From contig JAEELJ010000028.1 in NCBI GenBank assembly GCA_016288855.1, forward strand, positions 379-64,378: 64,000 nucleotides of DNA, given 5' to 3'. Source of the stretch: Acholeplasmatales bacterium. GTDB taxonomy: Bacteria > Bacillota_I > Bacilli_A > Acholeplasmatales > Anaeroplasmataceae. Within the stretch, counting starts at the first letter, position 1. Every line of letters starts with the position of its first letter. The position numbers and the translations under genes were made by a program. This document shows positions 15,573-50,643 of the stretch, piece by piece. Under the pieces are notes generated by a model. The model was not told the origin of the DNA. It searched no databases and was given only the letters and a program-made list of their open reading frames with translations.

Positions 15573-16350
15573 AATCTTGTTGCTCAGGCATATCACATGA
15601 TAATGAGATTCTATACTGAGGCAATATAAAATTTGTATAAGTTTGTGTAGCTTCTGGTGTTTCTCTTATTTGTAGCCATAAGTCTAGTCTACCTACAGAT
15701 AAACTACCAGTTGTTGCTTCTATAACCATATCTTCTTCTAATGGATTTAAATTAAAATCTTGATATGTATATACTCCATTATTTTCCTGACAGAAATTTG
15801 TCCATGATGTAAATGTTACATTGTTTGAAGTATCAACAATACCTATTCTTGCATCAAAATCCTTTAATGAATTTGGAACTGGGGTATAATCACTATCAGC
15901 ATCAAATCCAAATGTTAATGTATTATCTAAGCCAACATAATTTGTTACTTCAAATTTAAATGTATAAACCTTACTTGGACAAACATTCTCTAATGTAACT
16001 GTATTTAGTAGGTTTGCAGATGAGTCGTATGATAAAGCGTAACGTTGATCTACATAATTAAATGAATAATCTTCACTATGATACTTTTGCTGATAAGCTA
16101 CATAAGCTTCAGCCTCAGGATTATAATATTTATCTACATTAGCTAGGCTTTGCTTATCAGGTACACCATTAAAGTTAGTATCATTAGCTTTATATAATGT
16201 TACCATTGAGTCAATTTGTAAGATATCAAAGCTCATATCCTTAACTCTATCTTGGTTTATATACCATGCAGTAACTAAGCTTATCAAAGTAGTAAGGGTA
16301 ATAGCTAATGCTGAAAATTCCAATACTATTTTAATTATTCTCTTTTTCAT
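15571..16350 (-). CDS. TasA/camelysin-sized exported protein with a SipW-type-like leader (operon 2, gene 4)
   Basis: 259 aa. Leader MKKRIIKIVLEFSALAITLTTLISLVTA|WYINQDRV. Tightly packed behind 16382..17173. The fold assignment is inference only. Confidence 0.6.
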   Translation of the reverse strand: MKKRIIKIVLEFSALAITLTTLISLVTAWYINQDRVKDMSFDILQIDSMVTLYKANDTNFNGVPDKQSLANVDKYYNPEAEAYVAYQQKYHSEDYSFNYVDQRYALSYDSSANLLNTVTLENVCPSKVYTFKFEVTNYVGLDNTLTFGFDADSDYTPVPNSLKDFDARIGIVDTSNNVTFTSWTNFCQENNGVYTYQDFNLNPLEEDMVIEATTGSLSVGRLDLWLQIRETPEATQTYTNFILPQYRISLSCDMPEQQD

Positions 16351-16381: not shown

Positions 16382-17173
16382 TTAGAACATTAAGTATACA
16401 CTACCAATTCTAAATCTCTTTCTAGATAATAGGTTACCATATGAAACAGTTGATTGACCTATTAATTGGTAATATTGAGTGAAGTCTTCACTTATTCTAA
16501 AAGTGTAATATAAAGCTTCGTAGCTATTTAGCCAAGTATGATGTAATAAATCAACTTCTACAGTTTCTGGATCATTTTGGCTAATATTATAAGAACTAAA
16601 CCAAGTAAAATCAGATGCAGGAGTGAAATTAGCTGGAGTTTCTCCTTCTCCATCTTTTAAAGACATACTCTTATATTTAAATGCACCTGTTACATAGTGA
16701 GTATAATCTACTCCATTGTAATCAACCTTAAATGAGTCAGCAATGATATTTTTTAATTTTAAATTATAATTATATCCATCACATTGACTATCCATATAAT
16801 ATCCTAGTGTAATATCTACATATTCACCTGGTAATAATTCTGTAATTGAGAAGTAAGTATCTTCTTCAAATGTAGTAATAGTTGTAATAGTACCTGTAGA
16901 TGCATCATAAATAACTTGCTTTGTAAGTAATAATGAACCATCACTTTGCTTAGTATAAGTATTTTCTTCTGTACTTCCACTTAAGCCATATCTTTTTGCT
17001 GTAACTGTATCCTTAAAATGTATACAATCCTCAGATGCAGTCATACCAGTTATTCCTGTTGCTTTTACAGTGTCATTTGCTGTATACCATGCAAAGATTA
17101 CGAAAACTAGTAAGAATAAGCATATTAACATAGATATTATACTTGATATTAAATTAAAACGTGTATTCTTCAT
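16382..17173 (-). CDS. TasA/camelysin-sized exported protein with a SipW-type-like leader (operon 2, gene 3)
   Basis: 263 aa. Leader ...LLVFVIFA|WYTANDTVKATGITG, nearly identical in motif to 42007..42735. Internal ITELLPGEYVDITLGYY resembles the TasA-family xxPGDxxxxxF strand. Confidence 0.6.
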   Translation of the reverse strand: MKNTRFNLISSIISMLICLFLLVFVIFAWYTANDTVKATGITGMTASEDCIHFKDTVTAKRYGLSGSTEENTYTKQSDGSLLLTKQVIYDASTGTITTITTFEEDTYFSITELLPGEYVDITLGYYMDSQCDGYNYNLKLKNIIADSFKVDYNGVDYTHYVTGAFKYKSMSLKDGEGETPANFTPASDFTWFSSYNISQNDPETVEVDLLHHTWLNSYEALYYTFRISEDFTQYYQLIGQSTVSYGNLLSRKRFRIGSVYLMF

Positions 17174-20100: not shown

Positions 20101-20223
20101 TTGTGCTGTAGCAGTCTTATTAGATGTAGCATTTAAATATGCAAAAACAGATACACATGCTAAACATATTAACATGAATGATAAAGATATAAATATTATT
20201 ATTTTACTTCTTTTACTATTCAT
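17197..20223 (-). CDS. large surface protein with beta-helix-like N-region, Ig-like module and C-terminal leucine-rich repeats (operon 2, gene 2)
   Basis: 1008 aa. Leader ...CLACVSVFA|YLNATSNK. LRR block LTSITKVNLSGVTLSSATLTSISQLTSVTYLKLSGCGITDISSICDIDSIKTLDISNNSIQTFSDLVDLDNLEEVYLYGN. Module NITYTSSNENIISNYGKVTLPTTTEDVTLTATV. No LPXTG. Confidence 0.75.
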   Translation of the reverse strand: MNSKRSKIIIFISLSFMLICLACVSVFAYLNATSNKTATAQTDISDENVIEIASFEDLFMNSKASAYNDSNIVSDAQARKILRLTSNIELESSIEVTSDVHLDLNGKTLNLNDNTLTFRHGYAGCFSIYGGIINTGSNSLGKIVVDLANASFVTSNVTYYNNTTVTIEANTVTVLNIDPKYTAYNALYYVSDSIGSDLTRKVNKANYEEVSVSSYVINQSKFITTKTNCIFNSNTDELCSFVYKDLDLPMHYLSTDVNITYTSSNENIISNYGKVTLPTTTEDVTLTATVSHESWDTSYSCQFKLHVVNLSNSTVKNNVAKQLILDYLEEYYRDVTLNVNEEISISNYYEFVNSVELPLYAFDDNISFTYQLTDINNTAVNTTSHPSSNVYILQPNDNCFHLVVNINNSTNLVLNMYSQYVSDYETIARLILNKLYGGAIIYDSSTGSSKTLYKLSDLGSNLDATTYSYVTRYNITNLTYSLKEGPIEGSKATDYYTYSDYVLTASDSSVPPAKTSYLTATFTFGSGNDAVSVDVDMYVDYLAESGDTVAGFLPYYNRYDPMVQEDLEYEFEMPFSFGTGAPYICYDFANVFETHKNTNSEEFNYYTYALGVPSCLNVILYYNGAERVTFSNTTTSLTTLLDTYLTNNGLTVKTIAEYGDAKYIFRINAQNASTVDIPMLLLYNYKFSPAANWNLYSYSVDGHTYVTELTSSTFNICGGLFYNTSSSQTNAVKDRYFFSWIYNNFNPNGDTLAASSVTSSSFIPKKWLSIDIALDVTSDSTLSNVSDFYGIGNLTSITKVNLSGVTLSSATLTSISQLTSVTYLKLSGCGITDISSICDIDSIKTLDISNNSIQTFSDLVDLDNLEEVYLYGNLETINNPIVGSYGITNFQTYNDLIKDGITVYNKISSGVPVMFEDSDNYDDYAKLKSIVYQNKLSKKVSITQLYYNYRNMTYSDFGLINTPGTLTWGYQTTDKYGNTYTEYTATYFYCTYTFSGYTLTVKFYVDRY

Positions 20224-26200: not shown

Positions 26201-26522
26201 AATAAACTAAAATTGCTTTCTTTAGATTATCATCACCTGATGTTGCTTCTACATTATATATATTATGTAATACTACACCAGATTGATTTGTAGTTGAAAT
26301 TGTGATAGTTTTTGCGTCACCAGCTGCTTCATATGTAAAGCTATAGCTTCCAGTTGAAGATGAGTACTGTGTAGTTGCAGTAACTTCAGTTGTAGAGATA
26401 TCAATATTACCTCTTGATGATGTTGAAGTAATTAATGCATATACACCAACTGATATTGCTGTTGCAATGATCATTGCTGATAATATAATAAGCATTACAA
26501 GTCTTCTACTTATCTTCTTCAT
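20250..26522 (-). CDS. giant surface protein (2090 aa) with Ig-like and LRR modules (operon 2, gene 1)
   Basis: I place the start at the internal ATG at 26522 (MKKISRRLVMLIILS...), which has GGAGG 9 nt upstream. The tracked 26666 start would run through the riboswitch terminator. Contains ATITWKSSDEDIISSQGKIAATRLENAEVSLLAEI and an LRR-like segment YDKLTYLDLSNNLGIHSVNELV. No LPXTG. Confidence 0.8.
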   Translation of the reverse strand: MKKISRRLVMLIILSAMIIATAISVGVYALITSTSSRGNIDISTTEVTATTQYSSSTGSYSFTYEAAGDAKTITISTTNQSGVVLHNIYNVEATSGDDNLKKAILVYFNDEYIGTLAELTTVPLDIENKYSFIPLAESGTDTLKFELHQAAENSLFDGKTVTISITTITQNADYLDYIYVTNEETFSRAIDDVNSGLFSVNPTIVICNNVTLTNSYTIKNPTTIYLNGTLNGSLTINDDNTTSPDALLEILGNSSINGTITLGSYYDEDGAKSLVFNHIKDVIGEALSCGSTTNILGPYSFYGLNITVGSNCQYTSPNIIITNTSNEYYSKVASIVVEDETIEFKVLGSKSELIDATLAHLPNDGDIVSTDLFLPTYIKDQNATITWKSSDEDIISSQGKIAATRLENAEVSLLAEIKINDTVVTRTFDFKVSVHNNEINFYKLVQEISPIVIANVYNDASDADDALYHLPIVSQNSNGTFNEYDYRTSYDSPVNTQLFNWSAFKDIGIESITYSMTEEQIAAYDYITQSGNTLYLNTETLNSFARITITGDFGNDETYSTHINISISVGSNTQLLEKAFIQVSNELQEISVLGNIIATRISDGMGEEKGDFSLSATYKEDPEYTIVFSGANTIIDSITYDSVNDKYDFTINPEYFNEYETTVAFKATVYYKKGTIAETSKSRTFYVVVPAALHVDNFGTISLYESAKYQVFSQLPSNEKTGNTGYSTSDTILSDSNINYVLLRDIVGDVNYLTEYDTNDGYYLEVCGYTQASQYAQGVSILKFMTRSTNEQQTSDTAAYDLARLIEWATSDTRVAASTVVSNTQALGSLTSTKSNAEDYLNEDELAVIKQVYKYYTGASDSDWNNVYLESFNEAPGYIYTNPELLNQVIVSVSKSLSTYYNGGTATNFATIFGKYMEVIQRYAVSTTTVNKDDAAPCQEIYNTRYRWVESTSNLSSYTYNGTSYNINYSVQLNNGKWWCRYTFAGGSSGGDGNGSAKNYSLLASDRTSYITEDELTILRVFWLNGISASSGSTTGLNTSLTSNYSNINKVLQDDGGIYYYGFSLSNFNTAGKALLNAFDACLEIPTYFTADGVSLLIKEFYNNYNYGSKKYELNKYGENTTTFKTSLNSGIPYVTNVDSLKSALSYFTNLSTLEIYGNDNLAAFLSENGLSTLVARTSLVNKEISRLVMQNVAHTNTNFDLTNIKNYDKLTYLDLSNNLGIHSVNELVNVNRGNYTYVNITNIGVEYEYQEFAIDNIATSTCTIYYKNANGVNTYSNDSSRASDLADLSDFNKFISKYMYMTNVIYNEDGSTTTINWRIDEGNELYGRITNPGKYPEITSISEMNQMVSPFYYCSESFTYSYKNGTYSFIEGHIYKIGASGSTIVFNDLGLSSKTTTTSLPSVGFENVDVSDFEVKTTTETSYEEVEAGTTTNLETVTWYTENSTSVTITISAQYYYYNSSKKRYLSYRSFSGIPGLTQDTSTGTAGQYNRVYFLSEENVKNILNKSYKANTTITEDVYLNERYYLCFVYNNQLYLIGNKSDTIANDIIPSVTTNINSALSYTLVQYTSGYYYIQLYENTTFRLRCTDDFYVKYHSNKDAKGRWTVSTGVSTTINYTINPNFVVTYKDNSTDTIEAYKVGYEVDKIEGAILEYTDLKSIVSETRTTSYKYYFYTGENTIINNVTLKTNTIIAVFSSYDYVDNSIERKYTSSNSIIYVINIWYNETSSSDKVYLSNPLNIKSITINTLNSTQTYLISDIRSRFPADTEGTNSEYTYVYNDVEYTINDEGYSDMAYLYEHLTSNWELSSTVVIPYATYTTDLTSANTDLLNKQVEFYYGLSSGYEYIFRYTGETVTDNIYSWSPLYIQTIYSKNHAYNLTVNDGVLEWEHYAESVADSGGTNMDSILTEANSHFKDYLYGSYYGRYYAYSGTARYISSGIYVRPGYIYRIMPNAKNTAFEWVEVKAYTEDTSDNILIALGTGQLSVGDIVRSTAQAGFGFFNAGWYKVTLDEKTNIVNLVKYNDMGITINGESTYTSLTNDKLVQRTGDYLGYSGTFTVQITALIRTVQTDGTVLEYKKIYKMKFVGSLYE

Positions 26523-26589
26523 ATGAAAGCACCTCCTTCTGATATTAATTTCAAAAATCGGATTAGTTAAAGCAACCTTATATTTCCAT

Positions 26590-27891: not shown

Positions 27892-27989
27892 ATGTTTCTC
27901 CCAATAAAAAAATGAGCAGCCCTTCTTGCCACAATTGTGCATCGGTTACCCTTTTTCTAAGAAGTTCACACTCATTACTGTTCAATACT

Positions 27990-31100: not shown

Positions 31101-34100
31101 TTGTATCATATGCTGCATCCATTGAAGTTAATGTTAGGTTATCAGGAATGAATGTACCATTCTTAATACCATGACTTGAAGCTAAGGCAAAAATACCATA
31201 ACCTTCAAGGTTAGCTGATACACCTAAATGCTCTAAGAATTGTGTAAACTTAGTTGCATTAATTGTTGTATCGCCAGCTATAAATTGATAGAAACCTGCA
31301 GTTGTATCACCAGTTGTAGTTGATTTAGCAGCTGATGATGCATATGTAGATAATACAGTATATAGGATAGATGATGTTAATTGGTTATTGTCTGAACATT
31401 CAATTAAATCGTCTCCTAAGTATGCTGCAATAATTAAATCTTCTGACTCAGAATAATCATTATCATCACATATTTCAATTATCTTCTTAATCATATTAGC
31501 AATAACTTCATCATCAGTAATACTTAATAATAAATTATCGTAATACTTAGTTGGTAGGTTAGTTATTAATCTACCTAATACTGAGGTTGTAGATGAGTAA
31601 TCAGCTTTTGCTAATGCTTTGATAATTTCTTTTAATTGTGTTGAAGTAAATTCTTCTATTGTTGAATCATCAAAGAAATAATAATTATCATTTGAATCAA
31701 TCATTGTAGGATAAACAACTAATAATGTTTCTAAAATCTTATTAGCATTATCCAAATCAAGATTAAATGAAGATAAATTTGTATAATTTGTACCCTTGAA
31801 TATTAGTGTACCACTAGAAGCATCTGTTGTATCACTATCATAATAAATCGACGTAGCACCCGTATTATAAGTAATTGCACCATTTGCATTTACTTGTAAT
31901 ATTTCAGATATAACAGCATCAGATGCAGTTATAGTATAAGTACCACCGCTTAAATAGAATGCACGATAATTTCCATTAGTATTCTTCTTTACACTACTAA
32001 TTGATGTAGAAACACCATCAACATCATAAGTTGTTGTACCACCTACAGTTACAGTGTATCCATCATCTGCCTTAACTAATATAATAGTTGGAGTTGAAAC
32101 TGTAATTGATGTAGTTGTAATCTTTGGTGAATATGTTGTAGCATCAATTAAATTTGAAGCTAAATACGAAGCATATTCACTTAAGTTAGAATAATAAGAA
32201 TTATAATTATCTTCAATTGGCTTTAAGTTAGGGTATTTAACCTTTGTATTGTCAGTACCTGAAGCTCCAATATCAATATATGTGATATATGGCATATATC
32301 CATCACCTGAAGAAATTGCATATTCATAACCAGCTTCAATATCTTCATCTGTAATATCAATTTCATAATAATAAGATTTACCAGGTTGTAACTGCATATT
32401 ACATTCAAGAGCTTGTGAATAATTAGTGAAATATGTACTGTAGTCACCTGGAGTACTTCTCGTTAATTTATATAATCTAAATCCCATCTTATCTGTATTT
32501 TCGATATTAGATAATACAAATTTAAATGTACCTGATTTGATAGGTGCTACCCAAATACATCTATTTGGAACTAGTAAAGTACCGCTCCATGTACCTACAC
32601 ATGCATTTTCAACCGCAACTAATCCACCTTCATTATTAGCATCGAACTGCGAATCACCAGTTAAACGGATTAAATAATCACCATTTCTATAAGTTGTGTC
32701 ACCATCTGTTTGAGTATCAGATAAATAACTTACTATATCTTCTGATGGTGCGGCATGATCGGCAGTTGGTAATGTATATGGAGTACCATCTCCATTAGGA
32801 TAATAGAATGTATCAAAGTTAGCCTTATTGGCCTTATTGTAAACCTTAACATCTGAACCAATATAATAACCAATATTATTACCAGTTGATGAGGCTTCAT
32901 ATGTATAACAAGCAGTAACTTGCTTAGTACCAGCACTTAAAGTCATATTAATTTTACTAGCTGATGGAGAAAGCAATGTATCATCAGCAATCTTAAATGG
33001 ATATGCATAGCCCTTTGCAATAGTTGCTCCATCTGTAGAACCTAAAGCTTCGTATAAAGCTTTAATATCTGTATATGAGCCTACTCCATCTTCTTGACTT
33101 GCATCAGCATCTCCACCTATTGTTGTAATGAAATCATCCCAATCTAGGTCAGATAATGCCGCAAATGCAGTTAAATCTGTAGATGTTACTCCTGCAAATT
33201 TTTCTGCTATCTCTTCATCCGTTATGTCAGGATCATGCTCTCGCAGATATGTTGCATACTTATATATAAAGTACGTTATATCGGTACTTGTTACAGTATT
33301 CGTTCCATCATCGTCATCATATTTATCGTTCGCGAGCGTCAACAATAAAATCTTCTTAAACAATTCTACGTCCGTCGCACCAAGCATACTTAGATTTTCT
33401 AAATCAGTATATTCTACATCTTCAATTAGGCTATCTAAGTATTCTTTTAATGTAGTATTGTAATAAGCACTATAATAGTAATAATATTCATTACTTAATG
33501 CAATATTATCCTGCTTTGTATAAACATTAATTACAGCATTTGATGCAAATGTTGTACCTCTTAATGCTGATGATAAGAATCTTAATGAAGCACCTTGAGA
33601 TGATGTAAATCCTGTTGTAGATGCATAAACACCTAATGCTTCTAATACAGCTTTTTGACCATCTGTTGTAGATAATACTTTTGTCATAATAGATGAAATA
33701 ATACCTATTTCATCACTATCCTGTGGCTTAGTTGATGCTGATAAACCTTTTGTTCTAACACCATCTAAGGCAACTAAATCATCCATTTGATAATAAGTAT
33801 ATTGTGTAGTTTGTACACCACCATAACCATCTTGTTTTGCAGAATCATCAGTTTTTGAAATTAAGTAACATCCAACAACAGTATTACCATTTTTCCAAAC
33901 TGATAAAACATACCAAATACCGCTAATTATAGATGAAGTTGCATAACCTCTAAAATAATAATCTTTTAATGGGTGTGTGTATGAACCATTACTAGATAAT
34001 CCAGCTCTACATTGATTATTTGTCGTAACAAGACCAAGTTCTGTACCACCTGTCGTTACTCTTTGATAAGTAGATGAACTAACTCTTAAATTATTATTAG

Positions 34101-37100
34101 AAGTTAATAAATCGTTATTAGTATTAACAGTATATGAAGGATCAAAATTATAATAATCTGTTACATATGTACCAGTTTTATAATTCTTTAATAAGTATCT
34201 TGTACCATCTTGTTGAGCATTATTAATAATATAATCAGAAACCCATTGATATCTCGAGTCGCCTTTACTTGATTGTGTTGTACCAACGTCATTCCATAAG
34301 AATGCATAAGATTCTTTATTTGTTGCAGTTGTGTTAGATTTTGCAATTACATCATCAGTAAATGTCTTATTTGCAGAAATAAATACAGGAACATAAGCTC
34401 TTGTTGTGTTTGATATATTAGATGCACTATATATTTCTTTTCCCAAATAATCATCATAATTAGTTAGTAATGATGCAAACACCTTACCATTAGCCATATA
34501 TGGACCATAATAATATGTATTTGAATCATTTACACTATCTGGTGTATATAAGAATCTATTGTTTACTACTTCTGTATTAGAATATGTTATATTATCAGTA
34601 CCAGCACGGTATATACCATTTGGATTATTTTTACCATCAGTTGTACCTGATGGTGCATCAATTGACTGATATGTATTATTCCATTCAGTTGCTTTTGCAA
34701 TTAAAGATATATAAGAAATTGATGAAGTTGGGTCTTCATGACTACTAAATAGTCCACTACTATTCTTTAAATAGTTTTGGAAATTTGTATTATTCTTAAT
34801 GATATTCCATAATTCAGTATAATCATGAGTATATGATACTAATTCACCATTAATATATTGAGAGTCTGATGTTGAAGTATATTCATCAACAAGATTAGAT
34901 GAACTATATTCATTTTCAATTGATGCATCAATATCATATTTCTTAAATGCATTATTAATTGCATTTAAATAATAGCTATTGCTGCTGCTATTATATGCAA
35001 ATAAGTTAGCATATATAGTTAACGCAACATCAGTATGATTTGATAAATAGTTAATATACTTTAATGTGTTTTCAGCATCAGTTGTATCACTTAATAATTC
35101 TTGCGCAATTAATGCTAATGTTTCAGATGAATAATCAGCTAATAAAGTTTGGATTAATTCCATCTTCTTAACTAGATAATAATCACCAGTTTCATCATTA
35201 AATAATGGATCTAAGATGTCATTATTTGTATCATCAATTAAAGCTTCTAAATATGTAGTTAATACTTCTTCTAATTCTTCTGATGATGCAGATGCTAATA
35301 CTGTTCTAATCTTAGTTTGTACAGCAGCATAATCAGATGTATCACCAGATACAACCTTAGCTAATAATTCATCATATAATAATTTTTGTAATAATGTATA
35401 AGCATCAGTTTGTTCTGTCTCATAATAAGACATTATTGTATCAATGATAGTTGATCTAATTGATGATGTAATATCGCTAATACATTCATCATCAAATAAA
35501 ATATATTCTAAGATTTCTTTTAAATCTGATGAAGTATATTCAGTTGTATTTCCATCATCAGCACTTAAAATTTCAGTTAAGAAATTAACTAATAATGTAT
35601 CATCAATGCTTTCATACCATGTTGAAGATGTAAATGAAGCTTCAACAAGTGTTGTTGACTTAGTAAGTCCTGAATATCCATCACTTACGAAAACAGACAT
35701 TGTTGCAACATCTCTTGCAAGTTGTTCTGCAGCATTAACATATGCTATATTCTTCCAACCAATCTTTTCTAGTAATAATTCATTTACCTTATCGAATCTT
35801 ACGAATTGGAAGAAGTCAGCAATATATGCATCTGTTACATATGTATCATAATCAACAACTGTTAAATCACCATTGATTGCTCTTCTGAATATAAACTTTT
35901 CACTAAATACACCAATATTACCAGCTTGTGTATCTGTAATAGTTGATAAAGGAGCATATTTTACAGATGAACCACCAAATGTATCAAGTGATCCATTTAC
36001 TGTAATAAATGTTGATGCATCAATACCATCTGCAGGTGTATTAAGTTGGTTTAAAGCTTGACAAATGAATGCACCATTAAAGAAGTTAATAACATATCTA
36101 ATTGAGATATTAGAACTATCTCTACTTGCAAAATTTATAAATCCAAACATTGAGCCTAGATAATAATAATTTTGTAATGCTGCATCATATGAACCTGTTG
36201 ATAAATATGTTAAATTAACAACTTCATTATAGTTAACATGATATAGTGTAGCACCAGTATAAGAATATTTTACTAATACATAAACTGTACCATAATTAAT
36301 AGTATTTGCTAAATAGAAAGTTGTATCACTAAAGTCACCTAAATTAAATGAGCCAATAAGTGAACCAACTACTTCTGAGCCATATATATTACCATAATTT
36401 AATACGTTAACAATGTTACAAATACCATATGCCATAATACCACCTGTTTGGCAATGACATGCAGCAACGCTTGATCTTGTAACATTTGCAGAACCATTAA
36501 ATCCAATTAATGTACCATAGTTAATTGTGAATGCAATTACATTATTAATGTTTCCTGCTGCACCATAATTTGTTGCAACAATACCACCTACATTAACTTC
36601 AACAGCATATGAATTTGATGTATTGATAACCTGTATTGTACCATTGTTAGCAGAGTCTCTAATTTGAGCATAATTACCAGTCATTTTGCAAGCAATACCT
36701 GCTGCAAAATATTCATCATTTGCAGCTTTTGCAAATATATCTAATTGAATATCACCTAAGTTAAATGCGTTAGATATAATACCTGAATTTGAATATGCAA
36801 TACCTGATGCATAAACACTTCCAACTAAATTAGTAGTTGTAGTTTGTGAAACAGCTTGTGGAGCATTATTAGTATTTGTATAGTAAAGATATTGATCTTT
36901 ATTATAATCACTAGATGTTACAGTAATTTTACCATTATTAATAACATCATTTAATGAACCAACAAGTGAGCTATCAAATGTTGCATTTAAAGGATTTTGT
37001 TCAGTTGCATTTATTACTGCTAAATTATTACGACAAATACCTGAAACATAAATATTGATATTCATATCACTTGATGAAGAATCAGTTAATGTAATATCTC

Positions 37101-39921
37101 CACCATTATAAATAGCTTGTGCATATGAACCTAATGATAATTCATCAAATACACCATTTACATATAAATTATGTTCAGTAGATGAAGTTTTATTTAATGT
37201 GAATGATAAAGTCCCTTCATTTCTTACATCATTATAATTGATATAAGAACCATTAACAGTACCTGAATAAATACCATCAAATGTTAATGCAGTACTCATT
37301 GTGAAATTAATGCTTCTTAAGTTATATACTGCAGCTAAAGTAACAATATTATTACCTGATGTATCAGAACCATTATTTACATTAATAACACCAGCATAAT
37401 GTCCAATAACACTAATATCTTGCTCTTGAGCATTAATTGATAATAATTTTCTTGCTGTACCACTATAGATATAGTTGTTATCTAGGTTATAAACACTAGA
37501 AAGCTTTGAATCGAAGCCATTACCTGAACAAATATTAATACCACTTGTTAAGTAACCATTTAATCCTAAAATATTAGATGCACTAGCATATTTAACAGAA
37601 ACATTTGCTCTATTAGTCATTGCTGATGCATAGAATAAAATGTTATTTGCCTTATCTACGAATTGAGATGGTGTAACATTACCAGATGCAGTATCTGATG
37701 TTTGAATATCAGCATTTTCAATACCAGCAACCATTGTTAATGTTGCAGTACTATTACCATAAACAGAAATTTCACCTTGGTTTGTAAAATTATTTACTTC
37801 TGCTGTTTCTGATGTTTCACCAGCTTCACCTAAATGTCTACCTAAAATACCAGCAACATAAAGCTTAGTATATGTAGGAACTACAGTTGATGAACCAATT
37901 GAAATTGAGCCTAAATTTTCAAGTTTTGTTGCAAGTCTTGTATAACCAGCACCAATAACACCACCTACTGCGTAAGTAGCACTTGAACCTAAATTTAAAG
38001 AAATATTTACTGCATTTAAGACAGTATCAATATCTCCTAAAGAATCTTCAATGTAACCAACTAAACCACCTACTGCAACACCAGCCATGTAGCCTGATGA
38101 AGTAGAATATGAAGAATCAGCAACAAGATTAATTGAACCTGTTGATACACAGTTTGTAATCTTACCTTCACCGCCAAATACACCACAAATACCACCTAAA
38201 TAGTATTCACCTAGTGTAGATGAAGTTGTATTAGTTGCTTCAATATATGTATTAACATTAGTGATTGTTGAACCTTCAATGTAACCTGCAAGAACACCTA
38301 TTGCTTTTGCATTTGTTGCTTCTTCTATATCATCTAAATTAATTGTAGATACAACATTTAAATTAGTAACATCACCAGTCAAATAACTGAATAAGCCATA
38401 TGCATTAAGACCAGTTGTTACAACCTTCTTACTATCATTTAAGATATCAGCATTATAAATAGTTGGATATTTAGTAATACCATTATCAACCATTGTAACT
38501 GAACCTGATGATATTTGTTGTCCTTCAAATGAAGAACCAATACCATAATTATATGCATATGCAGTACCAGGAATTCCTTCAAGGTTAATATCGTTTGTGA
38601 TTTCATAGTTTACTTTTGCAGATGCGAAGAATGCATTGTTATTCATTAATTCATACATGAATAAGAAATCTTTAACATTTGTAATTTCAATAGTTGCACT
38701 TGCAATATTTGTATTACCTTCTGCGTCTATACCTGTAACAATTGTTGCTTCATTAACAAACTTTCTTCTTACAGGAGTTTCATAAGTAAAATAATAATTA
38801 AGAACTGTTCTAGTATTAGATTGAACACTCCAATTTGAATTTAACGCGAAAGCTTCATTTAATTCATCTAAAGACTTAACCATAATACCTGGATAAGATG
38901 TACCATTCTTTGTCTTAGCACCTAAGTCATCAGAATAAACAATTGTATATGCTCCACCAGCAACAAAGCTAGAGAACACAAAATCTATAGAAGTATTATA
39001 GAAATAAGTTGTTGTAATAGAACCTGAGTTCTTTAATGTAATATCTGCAAATTCGGCATAATCTGTAACAGTATAGTTAAATACTGAATTTGTTGCATAA
39101 TATGAATCTGAAATTGAACCAGTTGAAGCATTTTCAACCACAAAGCCAGAAATACGATATCCACCTGCCGCAGTAATACCACATTCATCAATTAGCTTTG
39201 TTCCTAATTGATTAACGTATACACCTGAAATTGTGCCCTTATTAAGACCACAAATATTTGCAACACCATAATCAGCCATACCAGAAATCATGTAAGCTAA
39301 TGTAATAGTTGGATTAACTAAACCAAAATTCTTAATTTCACCATTATTTTCAGCAAACATAGCGAAATATTTCATTGCACTATATTGAGAGGCAACAGTT
39401 GATGAACTAATAACTACGAATTCAAGATTATAAATATCATATCCATTACCATCAAAAGAACCTGTAAATGAACTTTCAGAAGTTGATGACCAACCAATTG
39501 GAATAAAATCATGAGCTGTATAATCATCAAAATCAATATTGCATAATAATAAATAATCATAAGCTAAGAATTTAGAATATGAATAACATGCTGCAGAAAA
39601 TTTATATAATTCTTCTGCTGATGCAATAGTAATAGTCATATCGCTATAATTAGCTGTTGATGCATTACTAAAAGCAGTTGTCATTGATACTCTATTAGTT
39701 TCTTTTGACTGTGTCTCATCAGTTGTTTTTATTGGTGTCTGACTACCAGCGTAAAATGACTTATAATCAATAAATGAAGTCTTAATATCACTTACATTTC
39801 CAGATAATTTATAGTTAATAAATAAAGCCAAAAATACAGCCATAAAAGCTGTAGTTAAGGCAAGACATATTGAAGTTATAATTGCTCTTTTATTAGAGCG
39901 ATTCTTAATATTATTTTTCAT
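28129..39921 (-). CDS. giant surface protein (about 3930 aa) with GLUG-motif/beta-helix modules (operon 1, gene 4)
   Basis: The probable start is ATG at 39921 (MKNNIKNRSNKR...), with GGAG 9 nt upstream; the track starts at 39930. Leader ...AFMAVFLALFINYKLSGN. Two GLUG-type modules (IASAEELYKF..DIDF..PIGW..FTGSFDGNGYDIYNL..FAENNGEIKNFGL; GLFSYLTGDVTNLNV, GVLAGYIEGSTITNV, GGICGVFGGEGKITNC, GGLVGYIEDSLGDI). No LPXTG or other wall anchor. Confidence 0.8.
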   Translation of the reverse strand: MKNNIKNRSNKRAIITSICLALTTAFMAVFLALFINYKLSGNVSDIKTSFIDYKSFYAGSQTPIKTTDETQSKETNRVSMTTAFSNASTANYSDMTITIASAEELYKFSAACYSYSKFLAYDYLLLCNIDFDDYTAHDFIPIGWSSTSESSFTGSFDGNGYDIYNLEFVVISSSTVASQYSAMKYFAMFAENNGEIKNFGLVNPTITLAYMISGMADYGVANICGLNKGTISGVYVNQLGTKLIDECGITAAGGYRISGFVVENASTGSISDSYYATNSVFNYTVTDYAEFADITLKNSGSITTTYFYNTSIDFVFSSFVAGGAYTIVYSDDLGAKTKNGTSYPGIMVKSLDELNEAFALNSNWSVQSNTRTVLNYYFTYETPVRRKFVNEATIVTGIDAEGNTNIASATIEITNVKDFLFMYELMNNNAFFASAKVNYEITNDINLEGIPGTAYAYNYGIGSSFEGQQISSGSVTMVDNGITKYPTIYNADILNDSKKVVTTGLNAYGLFSYLTGDVTNLNVVSTINLDDIEEATNAKAIGVLAGYIEGSTITNVNTYIEATNTTSSTLGEYYLGGICGVFGGEGKITNCVSTGSINLVADSSYSTSSGYMAGVAVGGLVGYIEDSLGDIDTVLNAVNISLNLGSSATYAVGGVIGAGYTRLATKLENLGSISIGSSTVVPTYTKLYVAGILGRHLGEAGETSETAEVNNFTNQGEISVYGNSTATLTMVAGIENADIQTSDTASGNVTPSQFVDKANNILFYASAMTNRANVSVKYASASNILGLNGYLTSGINICSGNGFDSKLSSVYNLDNNYIYSGTARKLLSINAQEQDISVIGHYAGVINVNNGSDTSGNNIVTLAAVYNLRSINFTMSTALTFDGIYSGTVNGSYINYNDVRNEGTLSFTLNKTSSTEHNLYVNGVFDELSLGSYAQAIYNGGDITLTDSSSSDMNINIYVSGICRNNLAVINATEQNPLNATFDSSLVGSLNDVINNGKITVTSSDYNKDQYLYYTNTNNAPQAVSQTTTTNLVGSVYASGIAYSNSGIISNAFNLGDIQLDIFAKAANDEYFAAGIACKMTGNYAQIRDSANNGTIQVINTSNSYAVEVNVGGIVATNYGAAGNINNVIAFTINYGTLIGFNGSANVTRSSVAACHCQTGGIMAYGICNIVNVLNYGNIYGSEVVGSLIGSFNLGDFSDTTFYLANTINYGTVYVLVKYSYTGATLYHVNYNEVVNLTYLSTGSYDAALQNYYYLGSMFGFINFASRDSSNISIRYVINFFNGAFICQALNQLNTPADGIDASTFITVNGSLDTFGGSSVKYAPLSTITDTQAGNIGVFSEKFIFRRAINGDLTVVDYDTYVTDAYIADFFQFVRFDKVNELLLEKIGWKNIAYVNAAEQLARDVATMSVFVSDGYSGLTKSTTLVEASFTSSTWYESIDDTLLVNFLTEILSADDGNTTEYTSSDLKEILEYILFDDECISDITSSIRSTIIDTIMSYYETEQTDAYTLLQKLLYDELLAKVVSGDTSDYAAVQTKIRTVLASASSEELEEVLTTYLEALIDDTNNDILDPLFNDETGDYYLVKKMELIQTLLADYSSETLALIAQELLSDTTDAENTLKYINYLSNHTDVALTIYANLFAYNSSSNSYYLNAINNAFKKYDIDASIENEYSSSNLVDEYTSTSDSQYINGELVSYTHDYTELWNIIKNNTNFQNYLKNSSGLFSSHEDPTSSISYISLIAKATEWNNTYQSIDAPSGTTDGKNNPNGIYRAGTDNITYSNTEVVNNRFLYTPDSVNDSNTYYYGPYMANGKVFASLLTNYDDYLGKEIYSASNISNTTRAYVPVFISANKTFTDDVIAKSNTTATNKESYAFLWNDVGTTQSSKGDSRYQWVSDYIINNAQQDGTRYLLKNYKTGTYVTDYYNFDPSYTVNTNNDLLTSNNNLRVSSSTYQRVTTGGTELGLVTTNNQCRAGLSSNGSYTHPLKDYYFRGYATSSIISGIWYVLSVWKNGNTVVGCYLISKTDDSAKQDGYGGVQTTQYTYYQMDDLVALDGVRTKGLSASTKPQDSDEIGIISSIMTKVLSTTDGQKAVLEALGVYASTTGFTSSQGASLRFLSSALRGTTFASNAVINVYTKQDNIALSNEYYYYYSAYYNTTLKEYLDSLIEDVEYTDLENLSMLGATDVELFKKILLLTLANDKYDDDDGTNTVTSTDITYFIYKYATYLREHDPDITDEEIAEKFAGVTSTDLTAFAALSDLDWDDFITTIGGDADASQEDGVGSYTDIKALYEALGSTDGATIAKGYAYPFKIADDTLLSPSASKINMTLSAGTKQVTACYTYEASSTGNNIGYYIGSDVKVYNKANKANFDTFYYPNGDGTPYTLPTADHAAPSEDIVSYLSDTQTDGDTTYRNGDYLIRLTGDSQFDANNEGGLVAVENACVGTWSGTLLVPNRCIWVAPIKSGTFKFVLSNIENTDKMGFRLYKLTRSTPGDYSTYFTNYSQALECNMQLQPGKSYYYEIDITDEDIEAGYEYAISSGDGYMPYITYIDIGASGTDNTKVKYPNLKPIEDNYNSYYSNLSEYASYLASNLIDATTYSPKITTTSITVSTPTIILVKADDGYTVTVGGTTTYDVDGVSTSISSVKKNTNGNYRAFYLSGGTYTITASDAVISEILQVNANGAITYNTGATSIYYDSDTTDASSGTLIFKGTNYTNLSSFNLDLDNANKILETLLVVYPTMIDSNDNYYFFDDSTIEEFTSTQLKEIIKALAKADYSSTTSVLGRLITNLPTKYYDNLLLSITDDEVIANMIKKIIEICDDNDYSESEDLIIAAYLGDDLIECSDNNQLTSSILYTVLSTYASSAAKSTTTGDTTAGFYQFIAGDTTINATKFTQFLEHLGVSANLEGYGIFALASSHGIKNGTFIPDNLTLTSMDAAYDTTATDSNNASIIKLLDASINSSDVTTTGSISTSWRDNTGNSSVATDTTQSYDTSDSSSVNYAFRIEMKQLKLSISTTIFELDLTDSTAGTIYASSSTIDVDNGTITYYVLETDLATIMANNNISIKNIDYAETATYVTNKSNTSTINLTGGFTNSKGNYQVKDAITVTAEDTSVYTAYDIILVGIPVSFTVTSDTSSLTYNGGTVTLTITCPNIPDNFDFKSFFTITNDSTSYKEGKGWTYNASTRNNGIVTNGSATLVIDINANLPGGTEELTISVFSQTRTVEVEKALNTEAKITKLTFEDNDLTTSGAYVSGKTSSIKFGRAYDYTELTNYKSENFYLADFEISPNASVVITATYANIANGDGRIRYSVKFVVTSESGSSETYYHYLDEMEYFDSTIANVFEEGVALQESDLYTEDFTYDSDSYLGQYSSLTYSSVDTFVAVKFNRGEEPQYRIKYILSNFYTLGDVTYETTDDTLNNGAAVSLTYAGLTVSVTESNEPGVYKFDYIYKSTGTWSGDTEYVRQYLFPTLFIIKGYSTDALLNRLTFLDQSIVIGNTASVMKTNTATSTSILAEASSEAVDGHETTYSDIFSLTSRDIEIKNKTIKYSTAAKSTSITDYFALGTVSDSDLSYYAPTFGIEEHAQIYQYTTLAKLTAYGADVQTESDAEVLSNHDTMYLYVPFTNGTTTIVYMVEVSSTGNWTNVYTTAFDGTNGATTKVGQFGTGITAYTAQNLAENNNYTSITINGYHVASETGSISNQALYMDYVGSPVNNHFWYVSYVVFSEAALHGEDDLGNQRYYHISIVDATNTIYFEVELYAPVDFAEVISNQELYMTISENIYSDTVKTATRQISGYLVVQKDDEDNIITDTDTNSHTYGLALYKLKIKLQTLPKGYFYFYIDLPDGYIVTVTTDMENQLDKSYDKIGSSIEEGAFLPFTSIITKTIALEFIVKEGTGDNATAWAVTTSDIYTRQAEYVGVTPNDEETSGE

Positions 39922-39938: not shown

Positions 39939-41201
39939 TTAAATACTACCCAATGTGCTAGGATCGACTCCCCATAATTCTAACGCACGGTTTGCTTGCA
40001 CAAGCTCAACTGTGAATGATACTTCTACATCAACATATTCAGTATATACTGATGTTTTTGAATTTGAGTAGAAATAAGCTTGATTTACATTAAATGAATA
40101 ACTTTGTGATGCAAAGTCACCATTTGAATCCCTTGTAGGTAAAATCATTGTTTTAAGATATGCTGTATTCTCATTAGTATTGTAATACCAACCAGTATCA
40201 GAAATTGCAAATGGCGAATTACCAGCAATTTGATCCTTAATAGTATATGTTTCCTTTTGTGCAGAAGCATACTTTCTTGTTAAAATCCACGCATCCTTGA
40301 TATGGATTCTAACATATACTGCAATCTCATTAGTAAATGTAAACGCAAAGCCTAGTTGATTTAAGTAAATGTTACTATCATCTTGCTTCTTTTCTGTTGC
40401 GCTACATGTTATTGTTTCACTTGAATCAGTTGTACCAGCACTCAAAGTTTTATCAATTACAACAAAACCTAAGCCATCTGTATCAACAACAACAAAGCAA
40501 TCATCGTTATCTGTTGATGCTTCATCAATTCCATCTTCACTAAATGAAGTAATTGTTACAGTAATAAGTTCAGCTGAATTCTTGCTAAAAGTAACAATCT
40601 TAGAATTAGTAGATGAAATTTCATATGTAATTTCATCACCAGCTGGATTTGCAATTGTACCAATTGATATAACACCTGAGTGTGTTGATGTTGCAACATA
40701 ATATGTGCTTGCTGGAATAGTGCTTCCTACTGAAACAGTAGATGTTGCTGTATATCCAGAATTTGAATCTTTAGTATAATAAGATGTACTACTATCAAAT
40801 GATGTATCTGATGTTAAATAATAACCACCATTCTTATCTTCATAATAAGTATTAGATGGAATTGTACCACCTACTGTAACAATAGCCTTAGAATAAGTAC
40901 CTGCTACATAATATGTTTTACTTGCTTGGAAAACTGTATCTGTTGCAAGTGAATAAGTTGTAGTTGTATTTAAAATTACATCTTCTACATCAATTAATGT
41001 ATCAATTCTCATCTTTGAATTAGATGAGCTACTATAGTCAATAAAGTGCTTACTATCAACCTTAACTTGACCTACTTCAATATCATTTGTAACCTTTTTT
41101 GTAAATGTATAAGCTGCAAATACTATTGATATCATTGAGATAAGAACCATCAATGATGTAGTTAATATTAAAATTTTAGAAATTCTTTTATTACTCTTCA
41201 T
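39939..41201 (-). CDS. exported protein (420 aa) with a SipW-type-like leader and short TDTxF..KTYY repeats (operon 1, gene 3)
   Basis: Start at 41201 (MKSNKRISKILILTTSLMVLISMISIVFA|AYTFTKKV) with GAGGG upstream; the tracked TTG start at 41219 is less likely. The C-terminal VSFTVELVQANRA resembles the TasA-family ..ATQ.N.. end motif. Confidence 0.65.
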   Translation of the reverse strand: MKSNKRISKILILTTSLMVLISMISIVFAAYTFTKKVTNDIEVGQVKVDSKHFIDYSSSSNSKMRIDTLIDVEDVILNTTTTYSLATDTVFQASKTYYVAGTYSKAIVTVGGTIPSNTYYEDKNGGYYLTSDTSFDSSTSYYTKDSNSGYTATSTVSVGSTIPASTYYVATSTHSGVISIGTIANPAGDEITYEISSTNSKIVTFSKNSAELITVTITSFSEDGIDEASTDNDDCFVVVDTDGLGFVVIDKTLSAGTTDSSETITCSATEKKQDDSNIYLNQLGFAFTFTNEIAVYVRIHIKDAWILTRKYASAQKETYTIKDQIAGNSPFAISDTGWYYNTNENTAYLKTMILPTRDSNGDFASQSYSFNVNQAYFYSNSKTSVYTEYVDVEVSFTVELVQANRALELWGVDPSTLGSI

Positions 41202-41228: not shown

Positions 41229-41996
41229 TTATTCTGTAGTTGTAGTTACTTCTTCTGATGAAGTTGCTATTGCAGATAAGATTAATGAAAAAGTATAACT
41301 TGCTTTATCATCATATGATCCTAAGAATTCATTTGATGATGCATCATATGGTTGAATACCATATATATAAACATAGAATGTGGCCTTGCCACCTTCATTA
41401 GTTGCTTCATTTAATGCACTAACATTTTCTACTGTTGATGTTGTCATTAAATCATTGCCTAAGAAATCTGCAACTGAACCTTCTTCGTCACTACTATCTA
41501 GTTCTTCTTGTGATACTGCTGTTGCAACATAAGGATCTCTTAAATAATAAGTCTTAGTTGCACTAAATTTTGTATCAGTTGTTAAAGAATATTCTGTACC
41601 AGATAATTCATAATATTGTCCTTCTGGAACAGTTTCATTTGCTGCAACAGAAGCTTCACTATAAGTAAATGTTGTCCCCTGCTTAACAGTTATATCAACA
41701 TTAGCCTTACTTCTATTTTCAATAGAAATTTCCATCATTACAGCCATAGTTGAAAAATATTTACCTTCACCTACATTATCAAGGTCAAAGAAAACTAAAT
41801 TATCAACATCATATGTTTCAGGGTTAACTGTTGTATCATCATCAAAGGTATATGTTAATACAATACCATTTGTAACAACATCAACAGGCTCTTCCTGATC
41901 AGTTCTAACATACCAACCAAAAATAAATCCACTTAATACTACAAGTAGTACTAAACTTAGTGCTAGGTTAGCAATAATAAATATCTTATTCTTCAT
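41229..41996 (-). CDS. TasA/camelysin-sized exported protein with a SipW-type-like leader (operon 1, gene 2)
   Basis: 255 aa. Leader MKNKIFIIANLALSLVLLVVLSGFIFG|WYVRTDQEEPV. Lies 10 nt downstream of gene 1. Confidence 0.6.
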   Translation of the reverse strand: MKNKIFIIANLALSLVLLVVLSGFIFGWYVRTDQEEPVDVVTNGIVLTYTFDDDTTVNPETYDVDNLVFFDLDNVGEGKYFSTMAVMMEISIENRSKANVDITVKQGTTFTYSEASVAANETVPEGQYYELSGTEYSLTTDTKFSATKTYYLRDPYVATAVSQEELDSSDEEGSVADFLGNDLMTTSTVENVSALNEATNEGGKATFYVYIYGIQPYDASSNEFLGSYDDKASYTFSLILSAIATSSEEVTTTTE

Positions 41997-42006: not shown

Positions 42007-42735
42007 CTAGTTACTAATGAATAATGACTTAATGCTTAAGCCTTGGAATTGATAATAACTATCTATAATATCATCACCTGTAGATACAAATGATAACGCA
42101 AAATAATCAATTGATGTAGTAGTTAAAACTGTGTAATCAAATATTGCAGTTTCAAGTGATTGAGCAACATCACTACCAATACCCTTAGGTACATCATTTG
42201 TAATTATAGGAGATGTATATAATTTAAATACATCTTCAATTTTATAATCATCTAATTCAACTGAATATTCACCAGAATCTTCAGTAATTGTATATAAAGT
42301 TTTTTCCTCGTTATCTTCTGTAACAGTAATATCAGAAGTTTGAGACTGATACATAACTACATTGTTATATAATACAGAATAATTTGTACTATAAGTTGCA
42401 GTAACAATTTCTTGATTTAATACAGATGAAATACCTGTAAAATGAGCACTATATTCACTATTAGCAGTTAATCCGTCTGCAACAAGCTTAAAATATATTA
42501 CATCATCAGGCCAAGCTTCAACAGAAAGCTCTCCATCAGATCTAATCCATTGCTTAGATACCTTATCCCAGTAGTATAATTTAAATTCAGCTGTATTGTC
42601 TTCTGTTTTACCAATAATTCCAGTTGCCTTTACAGAATCATTTGATATATACCATGCCATCAATACAGTTACAAGAAGGAATCCAGTAACAAATAAAGAT
42701 GCTAATGATAATATTAAATTTAAATGCTTCTTCAT
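42007..42735 (-). CDS. TasA/camelysin-sized exported protein with a SipW-type-like leader (operon 1, gene 1)
   Basis: Start at 42735 (MKKHLNLILSLASLFVTGFLLVTVLMA|WYISNDSVKATGIIG) with AGGAGG upstream. The tracked 42786 start would overlap the leader terminator. Confidence 0.6.
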   Translation of the reverse strand: MKKHLNLILSLASLFVTGFLLVTVLMAWYISNDSVKATGIIGKTEDNTAEFKLYYWDKVSKQWIRSDGELSVEAWPDDVIYFKLVADGLTANSEYSAHFTGISSVLNQEIVTATYSTNYSVLYNNVVMYQSQTSDITVTEDNEEKTLYTITEDSGEYSVELDDYKIEDVFKLYTSPIITNDVPKGIGSDVAQSLETAIFDYTVLTTTSIDYFALSFVSTGDDIIDSYYQFQGLSIKSLFISN

Positions 42736-42784
42736 AATTCCTCCTAAAATAAATGTAATACCTAAAGGAAGTTTTTTGGGCAAC

Positions 42785-42875
42785 AAAAAAACCAGTCCTT
42801 CATAATAGCAACTGGCTGTCTCATTAAGACCCTATAGCTTTGCGTCACAGGATCACTCCTGCTTTGCCTAAAACA
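42785..42875 (-). promoter_or_regulatory. c-di-GMP-I (GEMM-I) riboswitch with terminator-like hairpin, leader of operon 1
   Basis: Minus-strand RNA: AGGCAAAG[CAGGA-GUGA-UCCUG]UGACGCAAAGCUAUAGGGUCUUAAUGAGACAGCCAGUUGCUAUUAUGAAGGACUGG plus U7. It shares GACGCAAAGCUAUAGGGUCUU and GACAGCCAGUUGC exactly with the copy at 26590-26695. Confidence 0.75.
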
Positions 42876-43125
42876 CAATGTACACAAGACTAAATGCACA
42901 TTCTAAAATCATATTACAATAATACATTTTTCATTTTATACTCATTTGACATATTTGTCTATAAAAAAATGAATATTATTTTTAATTCATAACAAAAACT
43001 AACAAATGTAAACTTTTTTACGATTTTTATTATATCATAATTATCTCATATATTATAAATAATATATGAATTATTTTTATGGAATAAACTTTAAAATAAT
43101 GATATACTCTTTTTGGGTGATTTTA

Positions 43126-49704: not shown

Positions 49705-50643
49705 CTAGCTTAATCTAGATATATTTATTAATAATTGTGTTTTGAATCTTTCTTTGAAGTCAGCATCTAACATAGAATCATCGATTATAGAGACATATTC
49801 ATTTTTTAGTCCAATGAATCTATTGATGATTCTATTAATTACTTTTTCATCTAAACCAATAGAAATTCCATACTTAACGAAATCACCTTTTCTTAAATTT
49901 CTCTTTTTTCCATTAATAGTTAATGCAAGATCTTCATTATCATCTTTAACTAAAAGCTTAGCTGGTAAAAGATCATATGCAGGAGATAATTCAATATCTC
50001 CATTTTTCTTTTCAATTAAAGAAAAATTTTTTAAATGCATATCAGAATTACATGTGATGAAAGAAAAGACTATTCTTTCAAACAAGCTTACAGTATCTAA
50101 TTTCTTTATTGAACTATATTTTTCAATTATTTTAGCACATCTTTCATATGAGCTTTTATATTTATCTTCTGTTAGTCTTTCACTTAACTGACAAAAATCT
50201 TCCATATGTATTTTAGAGTTTTCTTTTCTGTCGACTCTTTTAGATATGTAAGCATACTCATTATCCTTCATCTTTAGTAACCCAAATGGACAAACAGATA
50301 TTTTACTTATTCTAGCCATATGCATTACAATAAATTCTGAAATGGGAGCCATTGGGTATTCTTGAGGTTTTGGCTTTAAAATATAGCCTAATGGTTCCCC
50401 AATTAAAGTAAGTCTACTTGTCGTTTCGCATTTCTCATAATGTAGTGACATTTTGCTTTGTACACCAGTGACTGATTTTTTACTTTCAAGCATGCCACTA
50501 GCATATAAAGCTACATTTGACTCTTTCAAATCAAATTCAGGCATTTCTTGATATCCAAAGAAATTCTTTAGACATTTTTTATGCCAATAGTAAGGTTCAT
50601 CGTTAGAAAGCTCCTTAAAGCAGCATAAGCATCTATTTTTCAT
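49705..50643 (-). CDS. hipT: HipA-family Ser/Thr kinase toxin lacking N-subdomain 1 (HipT-like)
   Basis: Start at 50643 (MKNRCLCCFKEL...) with AGGGGTGA RBS. Catalytic-loop CNSDMHLKNFSL and SPAYDLLPA match HipA D-x-H-x-KN and the Mg-binding D. Confidence 0.75.
   Translation of the reverse strand: MKNRCLCCFKELSNDEPYYWHKKCLKNFFGYQEMPEFDLKESNVALYASGMLESKKSVTGVQSKMSLHYEKCETTSRLTLIGEPLGYILKPKPQEYPMAPISEFIVMHMARISKISVCPFGLLKMKDNEYAYISKRVDRKENSKIHMEDFCQLSERLTEDKYKSSYERCAKIIEKYSSIKKLDTVSLFERIVFSFITCNSDMHLKNFSLIEKKNGDIELSPAYDLLPAKLLVKDDNEDLALTINGKKRNLRKGDFVKYGISIGLDEKVINRIINRFIGLKNEYVSIIDDSMLDADFKERFKTQLLINISRLS

Follow-up and report, generated by a model that had tools for sequence, protein, structure and literature searches.

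A leader homologous to the SipW class on small proteins of two c-di-GMP riboswitch-led operons from a probably wall-less bacterium

Donor-strand fibres of the TasA type are known from walled Firmicutes, and an analogous form is known from archaea. Here we compare with them the N-terminal leader encoded by two minus-strand operons, A and B, on a 64-kb stretch of DNA from an Acholeplasmatales bacterium (assembly GCA_016288855.1, contig JAEELJ010000028.1), the whole of which is referred to as the window. In the tapA-sipW-tasA system of Bacillus subtilis, TasA has F at P2′ and is processed by the endoplasmic reticulum (ER)-type signal peptidase SipW, the P3-P4′ context as a whole blocking the P-type peptidase LepB; none of 143 verified LepB substrates has an aromatic P2′, and such a residue impairs cleavage by LepB (PMC10269814). 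Residues 28-38 of TasA, which lie right after the SipW site, are the donor strand through which it polymerises, and TapA may provide the first strand (PMC9674648). The sipW-bsaA-bsaB-bsaC operon of Clostridium perfringens encodes TasA-like subunits and a larger non-TasA protein, all thought to be SipW-routed, and modelling predicts that a disordered N-terminal strand is the donor (PMC11580942). For the archaeal bundling pili, AbpA is described as a subunit of beta-sandwich form whose N-terminal donor strand is freed by signal-peptide cleavage (PMC9245690). In the literature searched, no paper links SipW or TasA to Acholeplasma, Anaeroplasma or Tenericutes.

Judged by profile searches, the leader is real and far above chance in four of the eight proteins studied (A1, A2, B3 and B4); A3 probably carries it and B2 possibly does. 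Profile-profile alignment shows that the leader and the first ~90 residues are homologous to proteins of the SipW class. A sequence-only reading of the window had placed all eight N-termini in the SipW-dependent class of TasA and CalY; remote homology upholds this for the small proteins and not for the giants A4 and B1, which have no motif and no detectable homology. The eight genes are the following.

42007-42735, minus strand: A1, 242 aa, operon A
41229-41996, minus strand: A2, 255 aa, operon A
39939-41201, minus strand: A3, 420 aa, operon A
28129-39921, minus strand: A4, 3930 aa, operon A
20250-26522, minus strand: B1, 2090 aa, operon B
17197-20223, minus strand: B2, 1008 aa, operon B
16382-17173, minus strand: B3, 263 aa, operon B
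15571-16350, minus strand: B4, 259 aa, operon B

For a search of the window's 179 open reading frames (ORFs), we used a hidden Markov model (HMM) trained on the leaders of 144 homologues, none of them from the window itself. It matched A1 (1e-21), B3 (7e-20), B4 (1e-7) and A2 (9e-6); A3 was marginal (domain E 0.056, at the correct place), and B1, B2 and A4 were unmatched. The eight N-termini of the sequence-only reading were all confirmed on the minus strand at the gene starts given above, and its view that one leader serves all eight products stands for the four matched proteins, is probable for A3 and possible for B2, and fails for A4 and B1. The segments concerned are listed here, with an arrow at the putative cleavage site.

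42655..42735, minus strand: A1 leader, residues 1-27, MKKHLNLILSLASLFVTGFLLVTVLMA, predicted cleavage before W28
42601..42654, minus strand: first 18 mature residues of A1, candidate donor strand, WYISNDSVKATGIIGKTE
41916..41996, minus strand: A2 leader, residues 1-27, ..LSGFIFG↓WY
41115..41201, minus strand: A3 leader, residues 1-29, probable member, ..MISIVFA↓AY
39817..39921, minus strand: A4 N-terminal hydrophobic segment, residues 1-35, generic, probably a signal-anchor
26436..26522, minus strand: B1 N-terminal segment, residues 1-29, ..SVGVYA↓LI, generic, unmatched
20140..20223, minus strand: B2 leader, residues 1-28, possible member, ..CVSVFA↓YL
17090..17173, minus strand: B3 leader, residues 1-28, ..LVFVIFA↓WY
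17036..17089, minus strand: first 18 mature residues of B3, WYTANDTVKATGITGMTA
16267..16350, minus strand: B4 leader, residues 1-28, ..LISLVTA↓WY

Among the eight proteins, BLASTP similarity was limited to A1-B3 (first 50 aa, 50% identity, 2.5e-10) and A1-B4 (first 37 aa), and the N-terminus is the best-conserved part between the paralogues A1 and B3. The A1 family comprises 158 representative proteins recovered by an exhaustive HMM search. Many of its matches, including B3 (P0114, a near-identical sequence on a 1.2-kb contig), cover the first ~50 residues only, so that more than one kind of ectodomain bears the N-terminal module. Aligned to the A1 family with hhalign, B3 reached 98.9%, the A2 family 94.8%, B4 89% and A3 79.9%, while the generic N-termini of A4 and B1 gave at most about 5% in profile-profile comparison. 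The A3 sequence AAY(T/S)F is kept in the orthologues of four related loci (L001, L003, L006 and L010) and has diverged to GAF in a fifth (L012). The motifs VFA↓Y of B2 and A↓WY of B4 are kept in orthologues of 38-45% identity, that of B2 in L021 at 38%. By contrast, A4 matched neither the leader HMM nor the profiles of the A1 family and of the SipW-class alignment described below, and its orthologues keep no motif after the hydrophobic segment, identity there being 6-11% in two of the three, against 38-50% over the remainder of the protein.

The end-of-core pattern described in the sequence-only reading was confirmed and generalised by a logo of 153 homologue N-termini, which was anchored on the small-residue plus W motif, so that W at +1 is fixed by construction. 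Within the core the preferred residues are L at -21 (73%), I at -20 (72%), S at -18 (69%), S/T at -15 (85%), L at -14 (86%), T/S at -11 (81%), L at -8 (80%) and L at -7 (75%). Position -3 is V/I/L/S/T, -2 is F/Y/L/M and -1 is A (72%), G (13%) or S (12%), together 97%; +2 is Y/F (94%) and +5 is N (84%). The logo thus has the small -1 residue and aromatic P2′ that serve as the SipW-type criterion (A↓AF in TasA, A↓YF in CalY), whereas the D of the proposed N-D pair after the site is unconserved (13%). In the window, the site reads WY preceded by A or G in A1, A2, B3 and B4 and A↓AY in A3; P2′ is not aromatic in B2 (A↓YL) or B1 (A↓LI), and A4 is without such a site. The long hydrophobic core also proved correct: runs without charged or strongly polar residues are 20-29 aa long in all eight, compared with 8-17 aa in four other exported proteins of the window (three lipoproteins and one of Sec type), 23 aa in TasA and 25 aa in one SipW-adjacent TasA-like protein.

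The relation to the SipW class emerged through a bridging protein. A word-indexed search of 5.8e9 sequences with a 150-member family profile, capped at 8000 candidates, yielded P0175 (E 0.021), which begins GATFA↓WFSDSVSTNNNIITAGTLKV and scores 33.4 bits on Pfam Peptidase_M73 (PF12389; threshold 22.5). Most of its relatives (P0176-P0194) carry PF12389 and one is named 'TasA family protein'. The alignment of these proteins, A5, represents the Peptidase_M73 family and has the consensus ..GTTFAWFSDSVSS.TN.I.AGNLDV.LEYS.D...W...WEPG...VYLKV.N.G. In hhalign, columns 4-92 of the A1 family align with columns 6-93 of A5 at 97.2% (E 3e-11), FAWY being placed on FAWF, and after removal of both leaders the two still align at 55% (E 1.2e-4) over the first beta-hairpin and the PGD region. 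As a yardstick, A5 against TasA itself gave 91%, likewise over the first ~90 residues only. In that alignment A↓W of A5 falls on A27↓A28 of TasA, and the mature chain in PDB 8AUR starts at A28; followed transitively, from the A1 family through A5 to TasA, the alignments put the proposed site at the TasA site. The A2 family matched A5 at 84.4% over about 100 residues, the B3 family at 86.5% over the leader only and B2 at 54.8% over residues 1-31, whereas A4 and B1, used as controls, gave 1-3%. Among the 179 ORFs, B3 was the sole significant match of the A5 HMM (1.2e-6).

The curated SipW-class signal model TIGR04088 (cut-off 19 bits) recognised the positive controls, namely P0182 (22.6 bits) and a leucine-rich repeat (LRR) protein of locus L015 (19.4 bits). 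P0182 adjoins a SipW-type peptidase of 218 aa, which reaches 74 bits on TIGR02228 (cut-off 51.85), and an LRR protein of 1238 aa bearing the same leader. At the canonical SipW locus L015 (40% G+C), the 1238-aa LRR_5/DUF6273 protein (5569-9285) opens with a SipW-class leader, after which its N-terminal sequence resembles that of TasA. A true leader can therefore stand on a large adhesin-like protein, and B2, which also has LRRs, may be a faded example of this.

SipW-type peptidase genes are present at L015 and inside the homologous operon L018, a metagenomic contig of 28% G+C with two riboswitch-led clusters. On sequence grounds, these clusters are of the same operon type as operon A, with the peptidase inside. 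Among their products are a protein resembling A3 (98.2%) and a homologous giant that is 27% identical to A4 over 1683 aa (E 2e-92). Leader-protein genes are interspersed there with genes for three SipW-type peptidases, of which two exceed the TIGR02228 cut-off (56.8 and 55.7 bits). The leader sites are TTFAWF, STYAWF, VTFAWF, VTYGWF, ITFAWL, QTYAFL and TLAWIS. One of the L018 proteins, P0156, matches the A1 family at 97.8% and A5 at 92.7% over 171 columns, and so bridges both families. A GGDEF+EAL gene (cyclic di-GMP (c-di-GMP) turnover) lies at 537-2048 of this contig, directly upstream of the first riboswitch-led cluster.

We regard it as fairly probable that the leader is a diverged form of the SipW-dependent class, cognate to the ER/archaeal-type signal peptidase I, which marks the TasA/camelysin superfamily, and that it acts as follows. 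The proteins A1, A2, B3 and B4, probably A3 and possibly B2, would be inserted through Sec and cut by a SipW-type peptidase, whose gene would lie outside the window, after a small residue (A/G) and before W-Y (A-Y in A3). Cleavage would release a conserved N-terminal stretch of ~18 residues (WY..N..V.A.GI.G.T in the A1 family), and the freed stretch would most likely enter a neighbouring subunit as donor strand, giving a fibre or hetero-oligomer, with c-di-GMP turning both operons on via their riboswitches. The giants A4 and B1, whose N-terminal hydrophobic segments are generic, are more likely to be membrane-anchored or ordinarily exported partners, acting as adhesin or base. We infer the cleavage itself, the donor-strand assembly and the role of the giants. 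The sequence-only reading, which had the same export route and strand-insertion chemistry serve both size classes, appears largely right for the ~250-aa proteins; for those of ~2000-4000 aa it is unsupported, as A4 and B1 are without the motif or detectable homology.

The mature N-terminus is well conserved. In A1 its first 18 residues average 2.12 bits per column, where the median for the body is 1.57, and orthologue identity over the same stretch is 72% for B3 (L021; 46% for the rest) and 61% for B4 (48% for the rest). Two AlphaFold models of A1, with and without the leader, are all-beta (pLDDT, the predicted local distance difference test, 92 and 88); the 18 residues have pLDDT <50 in both and are undocked in cis even when the leader is left out. 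A stretch that is conserved yet unstructured fits a strand ordered only within an assembly, and the models are consistent with the proposed donor strand. A likeness seen by eye between YYQFQGLSIK of A1 and NKYQGNSIKL of TasA was insignificant (hhalign 0.07%).

Several results weigh against a SipW-class leader that is cleaved. TIGR04088, the comparison suggested with the sequence-only reading, gave no match at E<=1 for A1, A2, A3, B2, B3 or B4, so that no window protein reached its cut-off, and none matched PF12389 (gathering 22.5 bits) even at E<=1; the A1 family as a whole is undetected by Pfam and NCBIfam. Weak matches were limited to two of 150 family members for TIGR04088 (best E 0.024), one member for TIGR04090 (E 0.0011) and one of 70 for PF12389 (E 0.054); a subgroup with AWFS.RP, considered as the source of the weak TIGR04088/04090 matches, was the wrong explanation. 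Similarity was not found by hhalign in the C-terminal halves. That the curated SipW-class and TasA models miss the window proteins would suit ordinary Sec signal peptides cut by a P-type signal peptidase I, the resemblance to the SipW class being compositional chance; V/I/L-x-A also obeys the general -3/-1 rule, and a total leader length of 27-29 aa is normal among Gram-positive bacteria. We nevertheless consider this improbable. The hhalign match (97%) is in exact register and reaches about 60 residues into the mature protein, while generic N-termini of the same window reach only 1-5%; an aromatic P2′, present in 94% of homologues, suits P-type peptidase poorly (PMC10269814), and SipW genes lie inside a homologous operon.

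Most of the remaining points against cleavage by SipW can also be read as support for a leader of SipW-type descent that is now uncleaved, a permanent N-in/C-out helix tethering the small subunits and the giants to a wall-less membrane, with the conserved stretch after it as juxtamembrane linker or interaction motif. A SipW-like ORF is absent both from the window and from L001-L014, L016 and L017, which include the closest orthologous loci. The cores are more hydrophobic than that of TasA (best 19-residue Kyte-Doolittle mean 2.1-3.0 against 1.6), and the helix-breaking G-x-T/GGGT motif before the site is absent from the A1 family, in which -5 to -3 are F/V, V/T and V/I/L/S/T; in A5, by contrast, -5 is always G and -3 always T. 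AlphaFold draws a continuous helix over residues 2-32, through the proposed cleavage site. The large proteins all end without a C-terminal anchor. The closest named relatives are metagenome-assembled genomes (MAGs) of Anaeroplasmataceae (Mollicutes), and the host lineage is probably wall-less; released fibres would therefore need another tether, and a wall-less cell might keep the leader as an anchor. A separate point against the SipW-class reading is the fold: Foldseek searches of PDB with both models gave nothing at E<=1e-3 and no TasA-like fold, the TasA fibre 8aur_A appearing at E 0.55 and template-modelling (TM) score 0.24 in one search and outside the top 50 in the other, so structural proof of TasA kinship was not obtained; a PDB sequence search with the family profile likewise found nothing (best match CEACAM1, E 0.04).

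Three observations make the uncleaved helix unlikely in our view, if the most serious of the alternatives. The small -1 residue (97%) and the aromatic +2 (94%) are needs of a peptidase site and not of an anchor; L018 proteins with equally long glycine-free cores adjoin SipW genes; and the leaders of A2, B4 and B2 are less conserved than the bodies in orthologue pairs, as is typical of cleaved signals. A polar heptad stripe (N-22, S-18, S/T-15, T-11), considered as proof of a retained membrane helix, was dropped as decisive for this last reason and because the canonical SipW-adjacent leaders of A5 share core positions with the A1 family, L-21 and S-18 being invariant there and L-14 and LL-8/-7 in the consensus.

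The AlphaFold model has the shape of a lollipop, with an N-terminal helix and a beta domain. Together with the N-terminus being the most conserved part of A1 and B3 and a weak TfpZ match (E 0.17), the shape recalls a type IV pilin-like (class III) leader, in which the hydrophobic helix is kept as filament core once a short prepilin leader has been removed. This alternative is effectively refuted and we hold it to be most improbable: the prepilin motif (G↓F/M...E5) is absent, neither the window nor those related loci that were examined yielded a prepilin peptidase, assembly ATPase or platform gene, and an unstructured linker separates the helix from the beta domain.

The reading of a diverged SipW-class leader includes control by c-di-GMP, for which the following elements were identified upstream of the operons.

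42804..42878, minus strand: c-di-GMP-I riboswitch aptamer before operon A (56.5 bits on Rfam RF01051, gathering score 35)
26608-26696, minus strand: c-di-GMP-I riboswitch aptamer before operon B (Rfam, 61.3 bits)
26596-26621, minus strand: terminator hairpin overlapping the operon B aptamer (terminator scan)

With their terminator regions the elements span 42785-42878 (operon A) and 26596-26696 (operon B), both on the minus strand; the operon B terminator is a scanner call and that of operon A, a 5-bp stem followed by T7, was read by eye. The 3′ strand of the aptamer doubles as the 5′ arm of the terminator, so ligand binding should block termination and the riboswitches should act as ON switches. 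A c-di-GMP-I riboswitch also precedes eight homologous clusters, in L003, L006, L007, L010, L012, L013 and, twice, L018. At L013, a 579-aa protein with the same leader (10697-12436, ..STSIYA↓WYTNY) follows the A1-family member P0134 behind such a riboswitch; a giant gene is not adjacent, making this cluster a shorter variant of the operon type.

The ORF-caller starts of A1 (TTG 42786) and B1 (ATG 26666) reach into riboswitch/terminator sequence (42736-42786 and 26523-26666, minus strand). We take ATG 42735 and ATG 26522 as the true starts, because an AGGAGG-type ribosome-binding site lies upstream of both and the longer starts run into the RNA elements. The G+C content of the window is about 28%. 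By Pfam, B2 contains LRR and aBig_2 domains. A2 (residues 111-160) and A3 (residues 81-154) have in common a short internal module (61% over 23 aa). With 45% over 40 aa (E 3e-5), this module also ties A2 to the C-terminus of the B2 orthologue in L021 (6787-9981), and it may reflect an element of interaction or fold that small and large subunits share. Genes of defence or toxin type flank or separate the operons: an Abi_2 gene (26914-27942, minus strand) between A and B, a Schlafen/AlbA_2 + HATPase_c_4 gene (14010-15449, minus strand) immediately downstream of operon B and, at a greater distance, a HipA_C kinase gene (49705-50673, minus strand). A 1570-aa ORF (52454-57166, minus strand) with no Pfam match and an N-terminus that is not signal-like adjoins mechanosensitive-channel and GT2 glycosyltransferase genes.

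Taken as sequence relationships, these proteins appear to form an unannotated branch of the TasA superfamily with a diverged SipW-class leader, in riboswitch-controlled operons that also encode giants. About 160 protein clusters undetected by Pfam and NCBIfam would be remote TasA-type relatives with a recognisable variant of the leader, from MAGs labelled Anaeroplasmataceae or 'Bacilli', with giant surface proteins and behind c-di-GMP riboswitches. Scans of genome-contig and metagenome-contig collections gave three and two loci, respectively, and a 70-sequence family alignment was too diverse for the design of a search pattern. A practical correction follows, in that the leader is common to the small subunits and not the largest proteins. 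If processing and strand exchange hold true, SipW/TasA-type matrix biology extends to wall-less bacteria, with a concrete answer as to how wall-less cells anchor fibres, and the motif [VIL]-[FYLM]-[AGS]↓W-[YF]-x-x-N could be used to annotate gut and rumen metagenome proteins. The data suggest TasA-like surface fibres under c-di-GMP control in a probably wall-less gut bacterium. A further step, which we put forward tentatively and hold to be doubtful, is that a wall-less, Anaeroplasmataceae-like gut or rumen lineage makes c-di-GMP-induced appendages of an undescribed kind, in which TasA-like subunits (A1-A3, B3 and B4), with an unlinked SipW or with the signal kept as anchor, exchange strands onto giant membrane-anchored proteins of 2000-4000 aa that replace the cell-wall anchoring of TapA.

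Compared with tapA-sipW-tasA of B. subtilis, the operons show several common features: the n-region is rich in K, the hydrophobic stretch is about 21-25 aa long, the -1 residue is small and P2′ aromatic, a conserved mature N-terminus comes right after the site, each operon encodes several paralogous subunits, and the N-terminal PGD beta-hairpin region aligns with that of TasA in profile-profile comparison. They differ in that sipW is in neither operon nor window, the curated models miss the proteins, aliphatic residues replace GGGT, W-Y-x-x-N replaces A-F-N-D and the beta body is unmatched to the TasA jellyroll in Foldseek; they also encode proteins of 1000-3930 aa, are riboswitch-controlled and belong to a probably wall-less host. 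The C. perfringens sipW-bsaA-bsaB-bsaC operon (TIGR04090, BsaA family) similarly sets small TasA-like subunits beside a larger protein, but that operon begins with sipW, its larger partner is a 70-kDa VWA protein and not one of 2000-4000 aa, and isopeptide bonds are proposed for it. AbpA and other donor-strand filaments are alike in the proposed donor strand, with no significant sequence or fold match here; the non-significant Foldseek matches were mostly pilins (e.g. RrgB, CfaB and FimA-type). L018 likewise combines a c-di-GMP-I riboswitch with a set of small leader proteins, one A3-like protein and an A4-homologous giant, and is distinguished by the three SipW-type peptidase genes inside its clusters and by the T kept at -3 (TFA↓WF, TYA↓WF).

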